A stretch of 64,000 nucleotides of DNA from Candidatus Parcubacteria bacterium (GTDB taxonomy: Bacteria > Patescibacteriota > Patescibacteriia > Patescibacteriales > UBA12075): NCBI GenBank assembly GCA_002869165.1, contig PKTK01000013.1, positions 50,124-114,123 on the forward strand. Direction: 5' to 3'. Under the pieces are notes generated by a model. That model saw nothing but the letters and a program-made list of their open reading frames with translations. It searched no databases and was not told the DNA's origin. The number at the start of each line of letters is the position of its first letter. Position 1 is the first letter of the stretch. Positions 9,618-39,798 of this stretch are shown in pieces. Made by a program: the position numbers and the translations under genes.

Positions 9618-9666
9618 TTTGAGGTCTGGACCGGATTCGAAGAGGCGGAAGCCTCACACCCTCAAG
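9618..9666 (-). repeat. Direct copy of the tRNA-Cys 3' end, fused to a 19-nt arm shared with the tRNA-Lys locus
   Basis: Positions 9618-9641 are identical to 9791-9814 (tRNA-Cys T-loop to 3' end plus flank). Positions 9633-9660 are the reverse complement of GGTGTGAGGCTTCCGCCTCTTCGAATCC, also found at 37532-37559 and 37710-37737. A shorter 12-nt copy is at 9561-9572. Confidence 0.8.
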
Positions 9667-10697: not shown

Positions 10698-10889
10698 TTT
10701 TTTAAATGTTATAATTATACTGTTATCTAATATTAGCTATTTATCTAAAAATTTTTTTGCCTTATTAAATAACATTAAATAATAACATATTTTTCTATTT
10801 TTGTCAATGGTAATACCTTTTAGTCTTTAAAAAAATAATAAACTCCTCACCTTGTGAAGAGTTTATTATTTAATTTAAAATTCTAAGGA

Positions 10890-28404: not shown

Positions 28405-29307
28405 ATGAAAAGTAAGATTCTTGCAATTTTTGGTGCACTTCTGCTCACTTCTGGATCAGCTTTTGCAACAGGTGGACCCGGTGGATGTAATGGTTGTCAG
28501 GATGACTTCGCATTTGTCCAGGTCGGTCAGGATCAGGTTCAGACTTATGACGGCATTTCCTTTGGAACTCCAATGGGTGGGTTAACCATTCATGGTGGAA
28601 TGCAGGCCCAGGAAAACAGTGGTATAGCGTTCAACGGGAATGGTGCAGCCTATCAATCCGAAGAGCAGGGACATGAATATGGCGGATCAGCTTACTCGCC
28701 ATTTGCATTTTCCGAACAAACCGGTAGCAGCCTCATGACTGCCGATAACTTCGGAACAGTTAATAACTGCGGCTCATTTACCTCGAATGCCGAGCAGCTC
28801 TATGATGCAAAAATCGAAAATTTCAACACGATAAACTTTACAGCTTCCGGAATCAAAGAAGGCTTCGGCCAGAACATTTCCGGTTTTGCTACTCCTGGCG
28901 CCGAAGTCGGCAACAGCCTTGGGCTGAATTCCTATAATTCATATTCATCCGGTTCTTATTTTGGCAATGACTATGTCTACAACGATGGCATGGCTTATAC
29001 CAATTCCTATCTCAACGGTGAAGTTGCCAACAGAGGCATGGGAATGTACGAAGGATCGATTTCCGGTTTCCAGGAAGGCAATACAATGACTGCTCAGGAT
29101 GGAAATGGTACTTTCCAGATGGCCGGTCAAACTGCCATAGCTGAACTCAGTCTGGATGCTTGCGCCATGGGGAGAGCCCACATAGAAGGTGGCGCCGATA
29201 TGTTCCAGGGTTACGGATATGAACAGTACAACCAGGGCAAAAACGGCTTCCAGTATCAAACTGGCTCAGTCTCAACCCAGGTGGAAGTAAGCACACACAT
29301 TCACTGA
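28405..29307 (+). CDS. Secreted G/N/Q/S/Y-rich protein, unknown function
   Basis: An AGGAGG Shine-Dalgarno sequence precedes it. The signal peptide ends AFA-TG. The composition is low-complexity and rich in G, N, Q and Y. The DNA is about 50% G+C in the sampled stretch. Confidence 0.55.
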   Translation: MKSKILAIFGALLLTSGSAFATGGPGGCNGCQDDFAFVQVGQDQVQTYDGISFGTPMGGLTIHGGMQAQENSGIAFNGNGAAYQSEEQGHEYGGSAYSPFAFSEQTGSSLMTADNFGTVNNCGSFTSNAEQLYDAKIENFNTINFTASGIKEGFGQNISGFATPGAEVGNSLGLNSYNSYSSGSYFGNDYVYNDGMAYTNSYLNGEVANRGMGMYEGSISGFQEGNTMTAQDGNGTFQMAGQTAIAELSLDACAMGRAHIEGGADMFQGYGYEQYNQGKNGFQYQTGSVSTQVEVSTHIH

Positions 29308-29382
29308 TATTTCAAAATGTTTCGGGGCTCTACCAATCCTGGTAGAGCCCATATATAACCTACCAAAAAGGAGAGAAAAACT

Positions 29383-30249
29383 ATGAAGTATCTCAACACC
29401 CTGTTAGCATTATTCGCAATTTTACTTTTTACAGGAACTGCATTTGCTGGTGATATCTCCAACAATGTTGGTGCTAAATCTGATGCTAGCCAGGGCCAAA
29501 GTCAAGGCCAGACCAGCATGAATGTAAATGCCCCATCGCAAAGCACCTACGTCGACAACAAACCGACATTCGTTCAGTCTTTCGTATCCAAAGGCTCACC
29601 AACCCACCATATTCCAGCTGATATAACCTTTCCTGGTATGGTTGGAAACCTGACTTCCGGAAACGATAAAGGACCGAACTTCACCAGCATGTACGATCTG
29701 CTCAAATACAAATCAGTCGAAGTTGGTGGACCAGCAACTTTTACCCGTGAAGAACTCGAAAACATCGCTGAAGATGCCGAGAACTGGCTCGGAAATGATC
29801 CAGGGCTGGAAGCAAGGTACTATGGAGGGCAAAAACGTGAAGCCGTAGACGAAATCACTGTTCTCTTTTCCCCCACCATTATTGCAAAAACCAAAGACGG
29901 TCGTGTAAACGTATTCGTCGGCAAAAAACTTCCAGGCATGAAAGTCGCCGGCCAAATCCATTCCAGTGCTTGGGATGAGGATATTGTTTCACTTGACGTT
30001 CTAGCAGTTGCTTTGATCGATGCCATGAATAATGGTTGTAACGCAGCAGACGTTACCACTGAAGACGTAGTTGATGTTCTCAAAGTTGGGAGCTGGGGTC
30101 TCGGTTTTAACATGAGCGCAGCAAGTGCAACCATGGACTCTGGTCACAGTGCAATTTCCAGCGCAGGTGGCGGTGGAACAGGCGTTTCAGAAAATGAAGC
30201 CTATCATGCAAAGAAACCTTATCTGCAAATGGCCGTTGGAGTCAAATAA
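29383..30249 (+). CDS. Secreted protein, unknown function
   Basis: An AGGAG Shine-Dalgarno sequence precedes it. The signal peptide ends AFA-GD. The DNA is about 50% G+C. A terminator follows. Confidence 0.55.
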   Translation: MKYLNTLLALFAILLFTGTAFAGDISNNVGAKSDASQGQSQGQTSMNVNAPSQSTYVDNKPTFVQSFVSKGSPTHHIPADITFPGMVGNLTSGNDKGPNFTSMYDLLKYKSVEVGGPATFTREELENIAEDAENWLGNDPGLEARYYGGQKREAVDEITVLFSPTIIAKTKDGRVNVFVGKKLPGMKVAGQIHSSAWDEDIVSLDVLAVALIDAMNNGCNAADVTTEDVVDVLKVGSWGLGFNMSAASATMDSGHSAISSAGGGGTGVSENEAYHAKKPYLQMAVGVK

Positions 30250-36666: not shown

Positions 36667-36909
36667 TTGTTCTTTTTTAATAATAATTTGGAGCTAAAAA
36701 TTAAAATAACAGATGCACTAATTATAGGAATTTTCTTATTTTTTTTAAGCTATGCAACGGCTTATAGTGTTGAAATAATTGTTGAATTCTTTGGAGGGAC
36801 TATAAATTTTAATGGGTTCTTAAAAATGATGATGTTTGTAATATACACACCTTTCTTTTATATATTTGCAATACATAATTCAATAGAACCAAAAAATAAA
36901 GAGCTGTAA
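36667..36909 (+). CDS. Small two/three-TM membrane protein (TTG start)
   Basis: An 80-aa hydrophobic product. A terminator-like hairpin AAAGAGC-TGTAAAAG-GCTCTTTTTT overlaps the stop codon. Confidence 0.35.
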   Translation: MFFFNNNLELKIKITDALIIGIFLFFLSYATAYSVEIIVEFFGGTINFNGFLKMMMFVIYTPFFYIFAIHNSIEPKNKEL

Positions 36910-37061
36910 AAGGCTCTTTTTTATAAAATACATAAAATTTATTTTACTAAATATCCCAAAAAAGCCCTTGAATAGCGTTTTTCAAAAACTTTATTTTCTT
37001 TTAAAAAGGTGATATAGTTTTTGAAAGGAAATTTGTCTCCTTTTTTTGTTTTTCAAAAATT

Positions 37062-37135
37062 GTATCTGTAGCTCAATTGGATAGAGCACTTGGCTTCGGA
37101 CCAAGGGGTTGTGGGTTCGAGTCCTACCAGATACA
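37062..37135 (+). tRNA. tRNA-Arg (anticodon TCG)
   Basis: GTATCTG..GCTC-AATTGGATA-GAGC-A-CTTGG-CTTCGGA-CCAAG..GTGGG-TTCGAGT-CCTAC-CAGATAC-A. Confidence 0.85.
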
Positions 37136-37163
37136 CAAGTTTTTATACTTAAAATTCATAAAA

Positions 37164-37237
37164 GGCTGGGTAGCTCAGATGGTTAGAGCGCGGCACTCAT
37201 AACGCCGAGGTCGAGAGTTCAATCCTCTCCCCAGCCA
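37164..37237 (+). tRNA. tRNA with CAT anticodon (elongator Met, or Ile2 if lysidine-modified)
   Basis: GGCTGGG..GCTC..GAGC-G-CGGCA-CTCATAA-CGCCG-AGGTC-GAGAG-TTCAATC-CTCTC-CCCAGCC-A. It lacks initiator features (positions 1:72 are paired, and there is no GGG/CCC in the anticodon stem). Confidence 0.75.
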
Positions 37238-37318
37238 CATACTTAATTCGGATTTTTGATTGTGGATTGCGGAGCTACAAATTCCGAATTCCAAAATCAG
37301 AAGTCCGAATTTTGATAA

Positions 37319-37391
37319 GCGCCCATAGCTCAGTTGGTAGAGCAGTTGCCTCTTAAGCAAATGGTCGCAGGTTCGAATCCTGCTGGGCGCA
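37319..37391 (+). tRNA. tRNA-Lys (anticodon CTT)
   Basis: GCGCCCA..GCTC-AGTTGGTA-GAGC-A-GTTGC-CTCTTAA-GCAAA-TGGTC-GCAGG-TTCGAAT-CCTGC-TGGGCGC-A. Confidence 0.85.
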
Positions 37392-37785
37392 CAAAATAAA
37401 GCGCCGCCTGAATAGGGCGGTGTTTTATTTTGTGTGACTAGCAGATGAGAACCTGCTCTGAGGTGCAGGGGAAGAATAAAAGACAAGCTATTTGCAAAAA
37501 TATTATCAAAAACTAAACATGTTATTTTGATGGTGTGAGGCTTCCGCCTCTTCGAATCCTGCTGGGCGCACAAAATAAAAGACGTCTCGAAGAGGCGTTT
37601 TTTGTTTTGTGTGACTAGCAGATGAGAACCTGCTCTGAGGTACAGGGGAAGAATAAAAGACAAGTTATTTGCAAAAATATTATCAAAAAACTAAACATGT
37701 TATTTTGATGGTGTGAGGCTTCCGCCTCTTCGAATCCTGCTGGGCGCACAAAATAAAAGACGTCTCGAAGAGGCGTTTTTTGTAT
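37372..37785 (+). repeat. Tandem array of about 179-bp units, each beginning with the tRNA-Lys T-loop-to-3'-end segment (att-like)
   Basis: TTCGAATCCTGCTGGGCGCACAAAATAAA occurs at 37372, 37551 and 37729. The two intervening units are near-identical and end in GGTGTGAGGCTTCCGCCTC. Confidence 0.85.
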
Positions 37786-37799
37786 TTAAAAAAATTTTG

Positions 37800-37838
37800 C
37801 AAAAAAAAAGAAGGGCCGTACATTTTTGTACGACCCTT
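37800..37838 (-). terminator. Strong intrinsic terminator (minus strand)
   Basis: The minus-strand sense reads AGGGTCGTACA-AAAA-TGTACGGCCCT followed by TCTTTTTTTTT. Confidence 0.8.
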
Positions 37839-38408
37839 GCACCAGTTATGTTTTATGTTAGAGTCAGAGCATTTTACCTCCATTTTTCTGGGCAGATTCC
37901 AGGCGCTTTTCGTTTGGCCTGGATTGGATTTATGACATTTTTCTATGACCGCTGCAATGACCTCGTCTTATCGCGGCTCCCTGCTCCAATACCTCTATGG
38001 GTATGGGGGGGAGCAAGCGCATCATTTTTGACGTTCCAGTTCATCGCAGTACTTCCGAAATGGTGCCGAATTTACTTATCGACCGGTGACTTGAGATTTT
38101 CAAAGTTTTTAGATGGTCAGTCGCATCTGTTCTCCTCTTTCGCCGGAAGAATTGTGCCAGAGCAATTCGTTGCTCCCGAGCACAGGAATGAAAGATTACC
38201 GGGACTATCCAAGGTGCTGTATGGAGCAGTTCCATGACAGCGGGCTTAATCCAGTTCTTCTTCAGGTATTGTCTGCTTAAATCTTTACGGCGGGTCTTTG
38301 TTTGGCACGATTGCCTCTTTGTTGAGGTTAAGGTTTTTTGCGGTTTCTTTAAATGTACTTACATCTTTTTCTTATCGCGGCCCTCTTGGCCTGCATCGAT
38401 GCATAATT
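37803..38408 (-). ncRNA. Candidate large (about 600 nt) structured non-coding RNA of unknown class
   Basis: It is bounded by a canonical promoter and terminator. Two hand-counted 60-nt samples gave 45-52% G+C, against about 22% in a flanking sample. All frames are broken and no Shine-Dalgarno-led ORF exists. There are several 5-9-bp local hairpins. The class is not identifiable by eye. Confidence 0.45.
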
Positions 38409-38414
38409 GTTTTC

Positions 38415-38443
38415 ACTATATCATATATAAGTATATTTGTCAA
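38415..38443 (-). promoter_or_regulatory. Sigma-70-type promoter driving the candidate ncRNA
   Basis: The minus-strand sense reads TTGACA (38443-38438), a 17-nt spacer, then TATAGT (38420-38415). This is the same architecture as promoters upstream of several genes in this window. Confidence 0.6.
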
Positions 38444-38480
38444 GTATTTAATTTTTAAATTTAGGTTATTAGCTAAAATT

Positions 38481-38521
38481 AAAGAAAAAATGCCTTGATT
38501 ATTTTATAAATCAAGGCATTT
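38481..38521 (-). terminator. Intrinsic terminator-like hairpin (better T-run on the minus strand)
   Basis: AATGCCTTGAT-N10-ATCAAGGCATT. In minus-strand sense it is followed by TTTTTTCTTT. Confidence 0.5.
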
Positions 38522-38740
38522 TAGTTTGAATCACAAAAAAATAATTCCCTAAAACAAATACTGTCTTTTTGTGAAAAAATAATCTATTTTTTTCATACTC
38601 CTTGTTCAGCACTTTTAAGCTTACTCCCAGAATACTAAAAAATAAAAATATTTGCTTTATTTCCTTATTATTTTGGATTCTTTATTAACAAACCATAACT
38701 AAACCTTATCGAATACTTCCGCCCAGAATAGCTGATTTGT

Positions 38741-38773
38741 TAATAAAACGCGGAAGTTTTTGAAACTTCCGCG
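38741..38773 (-). terminator. Intrinsic terminator (minus strand) inside an ORF-free stretch
   Basis: The minus-strand sense reads CGCGGAAGTT-TCAAAA-AACTTCCGCG followed by TTTTATT. Confidence 0.55.
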
Positions 38774-39093
38774 ACTACGTGATGGATTTAGCCAATAATT
38801 TATCTTGGTATCCGGTCAAGTACCTTGAAAAACTACTGACAGACAGAGGAAATTTTAGCCAAATAAGCTCTTCCGCACTGGTTTGTGTATACGCTTTTCT
38901 ATCATGAATTCTTTTTTTTGTTTAAAATTAACATTTTTTCCTTAACCTCCTCCAAGGTTGTTTTCTCTATTGATATTTTTATTATGTGCGTCAATAGAGC
39001 GCACTTGAATCAGGTAACCATAGTCACTCCCGTTTTTGTTTTGGAAAGAGCTTTTTAATATTTTAGCCGATTTTTTTTATTTTGTAAAGTTAG

Positions 39094-39798
39094 CTATTTT
39101 GTTAAGACTAAATAATAATTGTATTTATCTGTAAAAATCTTTTTTTTCTTAAAACCAGCTTTTTTGGCAATTTTTTTGAGTTGTTTTTTGGAAAAAGCAT
39201 GATAATATCTTTGTGATACTCGCTCACCTGCTTGATTCTTCCAATCCCACAAAATATCTCCAAAATCCATTTTATTTTTTCTAATCAATTTAAGGAAAAA
39301 AAAGCGCCAAATTAGTTTTCCGTATGTTTCATGACGCCAGAGATTCCAAACTGTGACTACCACGGTTCCACCTTTCTTGGTCTTGTTCCACAGCTGTCGC
39401 AGAGCCTGAGTTTGCATTTCCTGCCCTGGCAAATGATGTAAAACAGCAATTGAAAATACAAAGTCAAAGTCATACTCTTTGACTTCGCCCAAATTTAATA
39501 TATCTCCTTTTCGAAAATCTGCATCTTTATAATTTTCCTTAGCATGACTCAATAATTTTTCGCAAGTATCCAGGCCAATATATTTTACTTCTTTCCCTAT
39601 AAAAGCTTCTTGGAGTCTACCATTACCACAACCAACATCAAGAATCTTGTCACCTGATTTAACCTGTTTGGTGATTTTGATAAGCTCATTCCAAAGAGGA
39701 AACATATTCTTCTTTCTAGTTTCGTTGTACTGATCTGCTATACTGTCATAGTTTCTCTCAACAATCTTGAGTAACTCTTTTTGTGTTTGTTTATTCAT
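39094..39798 (-). CDS. Class I SAM-dependent methyltransferase
   Basis: Contains motif I ILDVGCGNGRL, and later the post-I and motif II-like stretch FDFVFSIAVLHHL. Confidence 0.75.
   Translation of the reverse strand: MNKQTQKELLKIVERNYDSIADQYNETRKKNMFPLWNELIKITKQVKSGDKILDVGCGNGRLQEAFIGKEVKYIGLDTCEKLLSHAKENYKDADFRKGDILNLGEVKEYDFDFVFSIAVLHHLPGQEMQTQALRQLWNKTKKGGTVVVTVWNLWRHETYGKLIWRFFFLKLIRKNKMDFGDILWDWKNQAGERVSQRYYHAFSKKQLKKIAKKAGFKKKKIFTDKYNYYLVLTK

Follow-up and report, generated by a model that had tools for sequence, protein, structure and literature searches.

The window (the whole stretch of Parcubacterium DNA that was analysed, 64 kb in length) carries an ORF-free segment between a methyltransferase gene and a cluster of tRNA genes, and within this segment we find a candidate transcription unit read from the minus strand. 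The position that the original prediction gave to the unit, beside tRNA-Arg, tRNA-Met and tRNA-Lys and next to att-like repeats, is correct: the three tRNA genes occupy 37062-37392 and adjoin the unit, and the tRNA-Lys 3' end is present in three copies, one within the tRNA gene and two partial ones downstream. The main features of the locus are as follows.

37372-37791, plus strand: tRNA-Lys 3' end and two tandem units of ~178 bp, an att-type integration scar abutting the terminator of the unit
37795-39093, no strand assigned: lineage-specific segment of ~1.3 kb (unit and spacer), absent from the equivalent interval in three relatives (L004, L007 and L044)
37801-38408, minus strand: predicted transcript of ~608 nt (A 35%, U 20%, G 22%, C 23%), with no credible ORF
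37801-37838, minus strand: intrinsic terminator, a hairpin (37838-37811) of 12 pairs (6 G-C) with a 4-nt loop, then CTTTTTTTTT / CUUUUUUUUU (nine T)
38443-38415, minus strand: promoter, with −35 TTGACA (38443-38438), a 17-nt spacer ending in TGA and −10 TATAGT (38420-38415)
38446-39093, minus strand: ORF-free spacer of 648 nt, running from the methyltransferase stop codon to the promoter of the unit and part of the same lineage-specific insertion
37713-38237, plus strand: ORF of 174 aa, NCBI hypothetical protein C0583_06720, which begins in the tRNA-fragment repeat and crosses the terminator hairpin

The promoter is of the sigma-70 type, agrees with the consensus at 11 of 12 positions and carries a TG extended −10 (TGnTATAGT). 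It is the top-ranking promoter-like site within 36900-39200, and when the 64 kb were scanned on both strands (128 kb), only five sites combined 11/12 with the TG, this one among them. The other four (at 10807, 12916, 36607 and 53405) lie in intergenic DNA upstream of genes; since the architecture recurs there, we regard it as the real promoter form of the organism and dismiss a chance match. The scan agrees with the original prediction on both counts, namely that a minus-strand TTGACA / 17 nt / TATAGT promoter is present and that genes in the window share it. We would place the start of transcription at about 38408-38406. The terminator has a folding z-score of −5.2 and lies ~575 nt downstream of the promoter on the same strand, and no gene intervenes; it is the hairpin that had been claimed ~600 nt downstream, with a stem of 12 bp as against the 11 bp claimed. 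The sequence thus provides a strong promoter and an intrinsic terminator on one strand at the spacing expected of an independent, if only predicted, transcription unit. Both signals count in favour of a non-coding RNA (ncRNA) gene: the promoter because it has the same form as the gene promoters of the window, and the terminator because it is strong, on the same strand and reached without an intervening gene.

One of the other promoters of this form belongs to a second unit next to a tRNA gene. On the minus strand at 12916-12572, an 11/12 + TG promoter and a terminator with a 13-bp stem bound a unit beside tRNA-Pro. It holds a 43-aa hydrophobic ORF (12845-12714), for which reason its sequence is probably that of a small membrane-protein gene rather than of an ncRNA.

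The base composition of the unit sets it apart from its surroundings. The G+C content of the unit body is 45.4% versus 34.0% for the 64-kb window; in 200-nt windows, it stays at 44-48.5%, and the promoter-side flank falls to 19.5-23%. The description of the interval as G+C-rich and ORF-poor is upheld by these values and by the finding that no frame looks coding. An AT-rich genome should erode the composition of neutral DNA, and the fact that 45% G+C has been kept therefore counts for an ncRNA gene; the higher G+C is also compatible with horizontal acquisition. Elsewhere in the window, two adjacent plus-strand ORFs of 300 and 288 aa (28405-30249) have ~50% G+C in a 34% window and no Pfam domain in precomputed annotations, and these may be foreign DNA.

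A protein-coding reading of the unit would rest on the 64-aa ORF (38235-38041), the 174-aa C0583_06720 or a frameshifted pseudogene. It draws on the NCBI annotation of the plus-strand ORF as a hypothetical protein, on a plus-strand frame with only two stops in 223 codons, and on the longest frames being marginally above shuffled sequence (P about 0.05). On the minus strand, the longest frame has 105 codons (P = 0.058 in dinucleotide shuffles), and on the plus strand 131 (P = 0.046), so that on either strand the open frames in the unit are only marginally longer than in shuffled sequence. Each of the three minus-strand frames contains 6-12 stop codons over the 570-nt body. None of the six frames of the unit matches Pfam. 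The 105-codon K/R-rich frame, which contains the 64-aa ORF, found no match by phmmer among 1.84 billion representative proteins, and when the translations of the remaining five frames of the 1.3-kb segment (37796-39093) were joined into one query, it gave none at E <= 10 among 5.8 billion clusters. No Shine-Dalgarno sequence was found upstream of the 64-aa ORF; the good Shine-Dalgarno motifs within the unit precede only ORFs of 2-7 codons. The absence of a convincing frame had been anticipated, down to the 105-codon frame and the 64-aa ORF without a Shine-Dalgarno sequence, and the Pfam and protein searches and the shuffles support it.

The annotated plus-strand gene fares no better. We conclude that C0583_06720 is probably a spurious gene call: its start in a tRNA-fragment repeat, its passage through the terminator hairpin and its antisense orientation to the promoter-terminator pair all argue against it, the low A content of the plus strand (20%) accounts for its open frame, and a search of 5.8 billion protein clusters matched only its own NCBI entry, without any relative. 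The possibility of a decayed gene had also been raised, and the translated-frame searches returned nothing beyond that self-entry. Neither an open frame nor protein similarity thus marks the unit as a protein gene or pseudogene, and we judge the protein-coding explanation to be highly improbable. The stops in every frame of the transcribed strand, together with the lack of protein similarity, count instead for an ncRNA gene.

If the product is an RNA, it matches no described class. At gathering thresholds, a cmscan of the whole window against 4227 Rfam families returned only the seven tRNAs. When the filters were relaxed and E <= 10 was allowed (37380-38600 and 37795-38450, both strands), nothing was found in the body of the unit, the sub-threshold noise being confined to the terminator hairpin; the adjacent spacer at E <= 10 also gave only noise. 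Kinship with classes of the GOLLD and ROOL type, which the original prediction had suggested, therefore failed, as none of the 4227 families gave anything in the body at E <= 10. For ROOL, no covariance model match was obtained in the whole window at the gathering threshold or in the unit at E <= 10; with regard to context, three tRNA genes are adjacent, phage genes are lacking within 10 kb, and phage DNA gave no match. GOLLD has a 3' region that is conserved universally, and many of its members exceed 800 nt; its model gave no match at E <= 10, and the unit measures ~608 nt. OLE, RNase P RNA, tmRNA, SRP RNA, 6S RNA, group I/II introns and HEARO/omega gave no match at the gathering threshold or at E <= 10, and ARAGORN identified no tmRNA. 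A resemblance to RNase P seen by eye (GGAUAGUCCCGG and CUUAUCG recalling the P4 and 3'-end motifs) was rejected, as neither strand scores with any RNase P model.

It could be argued that the unit is a highly divergent ROOL, GOLLD, OLE, RNase P RNA or tmRNA, or a remnant of a group I/II intron, that the Rfam models miss. The size of ~600 nt, the tRNA cluster with its mobile-DNA scar and the lack of an ORF do resemble the ROOL/GOLLD habit (PMC12286853). The permissive scan of both strands, with nothing above terminator noise at E <= 10, speaks against this explanation, as do the ARAGORN result and the lack of a phage or prophage context, and we consider it barely credible. The unit is a G+C-rich, ORF-free intergenic candidate transcription unit and is in no named family.

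The predicted fold distinguishes the two strands. The full unit, terminator included, has a folding z-score of −4.0 on the minus strand and −1.8 on the plus strand; without the terminator, the values are −2.1 and −0.55 (100 shuffles). The drop from −4.0 to −2.1 indicates that much of the full-unit signal comes from the terminator. Eight coding control segments of the same length gave −1.2 to +0.8. Within the unit, the 5' 116 nt score −2.4, the 121-nt section 38140-38020 scores +0.7 and the 3' parts score −1.5 to −1.8. The folded and repeated elements are listed here.

38141-38292, minus strand: best-supported folded domain, 152 nt, z = −2.8, with 0 of 200 shuffles folding as well and pair probabilities > 0.9
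38370-38381, minus strand: GCCGCGAUAAGA copy 1, directly 3' of hairpin GGCC-AAGAG-GGCC
37966-37977, minus strand: GCCGCGAUAAGA copy 2, directly 3' of the long hairpin GCUCCC...GGGAGC (38014-37976)
38075-38081, minus strand: third CGAUAAG heptamer in the unit, from a post hoc motif count

The 152-nt domain is closed by CGCCG/CGGCG and holds two strong hairpins (GCUGU-AUGGA...UCCAU-ACAGC and GUGC...GAGCAA-CGAA-UUGCUC...GCAC). All four helices listed in the original prediction are recovered with a pairing probability > 0.9; its claim of a high density of local helices does not hold, as they are not unusually dense and z is −2.1 once the terminator is set aside. We view the strand-specific folding signal as real but modest and as no substitute for covariation. 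The difference between −2.1 and −0.55, with −2.8 for the central domain, counts for an ncRNA gene; the modest overall signal and the +0.7 of the 121-nt section count against one.

The short repeat reported near both ends of the unit does exist, although its length was understated: the 11-mer is in fact the 12-mer GCCGCGATAAGA, at 38381-38370 and 37977-37966. It extends to 15/17 matching bases, and a repeat of at least 12 has a shuffle P of 0.024. Both copies follow a hairpin, which we count in favour of an ncRNA gene. The heptamer CGAUAAG occurs six times in the 64-kb window, and four of these occurrences are on the minus strand within 37967-38711, a count made post hoc. In a test for any 7-mer present three times, the result was not significant (P = 0.48), and the clustering of CGAUAAG is a lead only.

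The spacer between the methyltransferase gene and the unit is far more hairpin-rich than the unit itself (z = −7.4 for 38446-39093). Its long hairpins are AT-rich, and around 39000-38960 there are hairpins that exclude one another. Two terminator-like sites are on the minus strand, at 38773-38749 and at 38522-38487; a weaker promoter-like site (39088-39060) and the fourth CGAUAAG (38711-38705) are also present. An ORF of 10 codons, MLILNKKKNS (~38934-38902), stands behind a strong GGAGGAGG/AAGGA ribosome-binding site. The spacer could be a leader or attenuator remnant, or could encode further small RNAs.

Evidence from related genomes is of two kinds. Four assemblies of one species (the window and those from ENA, JGI and Logan) carry the unit with 100% identity. 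The genome-wide divergence among them is ~0.1-0.2%, so that about one SNP is expected over the length of the unit, and the identity gives no evidence of conservation or covariation. We also compared nine loci that surround homologues of the methyltransferase (60-73% identity). The unit is missing from each of them: blastn and nhmmer were negative, and nhmmer with the unit and the adjacent spacer returned nothing. Relatives whose methyltransferase is 71-73% identical keep the order RecQ - methyltransferase - tRNA-Lys/Met/Arg without the unit. L004, in which the contig reaches further, also keeps the small ORF and PhoH; there, 70 nt separate the methyltransferase stop from the tRNA-Lys fragment, and no unit is present. 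In L007, a 99-aa ORF takes the place of the unit in the methyltransferase-to-tRNA interval. L044, with a 62% identical methyltransferase, has a NUDIX gene and ~400 nt of unrelated non-coding DNA at the spot. All three relatives that keep both landmarks, the methyltransferase (62-73% identical) and tRNA-Lys, are thus without the segment, and the spot between these genes differs in each of the four lineages examined. The absence from the syntenic locus in three relatives counts against an ncRNA gene.

Two of these relatives share a further arrangement. The conserved small ORF that separates the tRNA cluster from PhoH has a promoter upstream of it, and the −35 TTGACA of this promoter is directly adjoined by a perfect DnaA-box-like TTATCCACA in L004 (10743-10757) and L007 (2315-2329). 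The equivalent site of the window is without this arrangement.

Wider searches did not yield a homologue. Against phages and plasmids, blastn gave only a 36-nt AT-rich chance match. Four scans of viral contigs with short seeds or motifs gave no homologue; a degenerate-motif match in a 362-kb viral contig and a translated-frame seed match in a viral contig were both put down to chance. Among 185,579 species genomes, a six-seed translated-frame scan led to no confirmed match, and a double-motif scan led to six matches, all of them chance. A triple-motif scan of JGI metagenome contigs, among which the source contig is evidently missing, picked out 23 loci, all tandem repeats or TPR-type genes with no further similarity. 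These scans covered at most 6-10 short seeds per collection, and their negative outcome falls short of proof of absence. The lack of a homologue in the phage, plasmid, viral, genome and metagenome searches counts against an ncRNA gene within that seed limit. The original prediction had named an absence of both sequence conservation and covarying pairs as evidence against a structured RNA; as regards conservation, our results lean that way, as the unit is missing in three relatives, and are not decisive, as the searches were seed-limited.

On the tRNA side of the candidate unit, each 178-bp tandem unit is made up of ~150 nt and a box, GGTGTGAGGCTTCCGCCTCTTCGA, which is joined at the T-loop to a copy of the 3' end of tRNA-Lys; a terminator follows. 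Counted start to start, there are three tRNA-Lys-fragment copies in the window (37393-37791) versus two in L001 and L002 (12013-12248), which are full-length assemblies from the same species. The box has the consensus GGTGTG(A/G)GGCTT(C/T)CGCC(C/T)CTTCGA and comes with a partial 3'-end copy of the tRNA that lies ~130-180 nt upstream. It was located at the following sites.

37532-37579 and 37710-37757 of the window: boxes at tRNA-Lys
9637-9660 of the window, minus strand: box at tRNA-Cys
10075-10115 of L004: box at tRNA-Lys
1963-2003 of L007: box at tRNA-Arg
7706-7746 of L044: box at tRNA-Lys

These tRNA-fragment units resemble miniature integrative elements, or att scars, for which the tRNA T-loop would provide the att core, and they are spread across a Parcubacteria clade. 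Because they recur across several related genomes, they are perhaps the more general finding. The candidate unit is situated just outside them, with att copies on the tRNA side only, and the Pfam annotations of the neighbouring genes include no integrase or recombinase within 10 kb of it. Att repeats on both sides and a mobility gene, the marks of an integrated mobile element, are accordingly not found here.

Such scars raise the question of whether the unit is a remnant of foreign or mobile DNA and is now inert: an element beside tRNA-Lys would have lost its genes, the promoter and terminator would be leftovers or chance, and any RNA would be functionless. The 1.3 kb are lineage-specific in a spot that differs in each of four lineages, they lie right against tandem tRNA fragments of att type, which differ in copy number from one assembly to another, their G+C is atypical, like that of the two G+C-rich ORFs without Pfam domains at 28405-30249, the searches run gave no homologues and no conservation signal, and the structure z-score is modest, all of which suits this explanation. 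It has difficulty with the att copies, which are not on both sides, and with the lack of an integrase within 10 kb. Neither age suits a relic well. If the gene had died recently, it would keep a near-open frame and protein similarity, and here each minus-strand frame has 6-12 stops and there are no matches; an old relic should have shed its G+C excess in a 34% G+C genome. Moreover, a near-perfect promoter with a strong terminator is unlikely to arise by chance, given five such promoter sites in 128 kb. In the end, we consider an inert relic, the main rival of the ncRNA gene, to be somewhat unlikely.

On balance, we suggest that the unit is an orphan, stand-alone ncRNA gene, probably horizontally acquired, and would give this reading an even chance. 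The proposal of a large structured ncRNA stands in part: the unit is non-coding in all tests and has credible transcription signals on one strand, and no link to any described class was obtained. We infer that transcription takes place, that the RNA itself carries the function and that this function is exerted in trans. In this model, the housekeeping RNA polymerase would start at ~38408 from the extended −10 promoter (38443-38415), make an A-rich, G+C-enriched RNA of ~600 nt and stop at the intrinsic terminator (37838-37801). The RNA would remain untranslated and would fold into local domains, from a 5' region through the 152-nt multi-branch domain and a long hairpin to a 7-bp hairpin close to the 3' end. 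The 1.3-kb ORF-free segment would have been gained in the variable spot beside the tRNA-Lys integration site, or else retained only in this lineage. As to function, our guess is that the RNA might serve as a trans-acting scaffold or decoy, offering repeated hairpin-plus-GCCGCGAUAAGA modules to a partner.

A bolder form of the ncRNA gene would make it the first known representative of a class, so far undescribed, of large Patescibacteria ncRNAs that are highly expressed and carried on tRNA-targeting mobile DNA, a functional analogue of ROOL/GOLLD. We regard this as unlikely. If it were true, the hairpin-plus-GCCGCGAUAAGA modules and the self-complementary (palindromic) 5' GCAUCGAUGC could serve self-assembly or partner binding, and the relatives would be unsampled or would have been missed by the seed-limited searches.

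Patescibacteria genomes are tiny and tightly packed, which makes 1.3 kb without a gene unusual, and we know of no described large ncRNA class of unknown function from this group. If the ncRNA gene is real, its 600-nt RNA, driven by a strong promoter, would join the small number of large bacterial ncRNAs of unknown function. As a single-species candidate, the unit has exact coordinates and predicted ends to offer, which make it a concrete target.

The known systems that come closest are ROOL and GOLLD, ncRNA genes on tRNA-integrated genomic islands, and the candidates derived from G+C-rich intergenic regions. ROOL and GOLLD are large ornate RNAs that form nanocages seen by cryo-EM, and ROOL occurs in phages and prophages, often near tRNA islands (PMC12286853). 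Our unit is likewise non-coding and several hundred nucleotides long, with tRNA genes and mobile-DNA scars adjoining it and no associated protein gene. The likeness is confined to this genomic habit, that is, large, ORF-free and near tRNA genes (PMC12286853). The unit differs in that it has no model match at E <= 10, lacks a phage or prophage context and resides in a Parcubacterium; in addition, its predicted fold is not 'ornate', and no homologue family defines a conserved structure. With ncRNA genes on tRNA-integrated islands, it shares the adjoining tandem copies of a tRNA 3' end, the variable spot and the atypical base composition, whereas the segment lies outside the att-bounded intervals and is accompanied by no integrase or other island gene. 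Accepted GC-IGR candidates need several homologues with covariation, and our unit, which is without any homologue with covariation, is unlike them in this respect. As outlined in the description of the GC-IGR approach that we drew on (Breaker lab; PMC8632094), long, G+C-rich intergenic regions in AT-rich bacterial genomes are taken as candidates. Compared with that description (PMC8632094), the unit bears the same signature, with a promoter and a terminator of its own.
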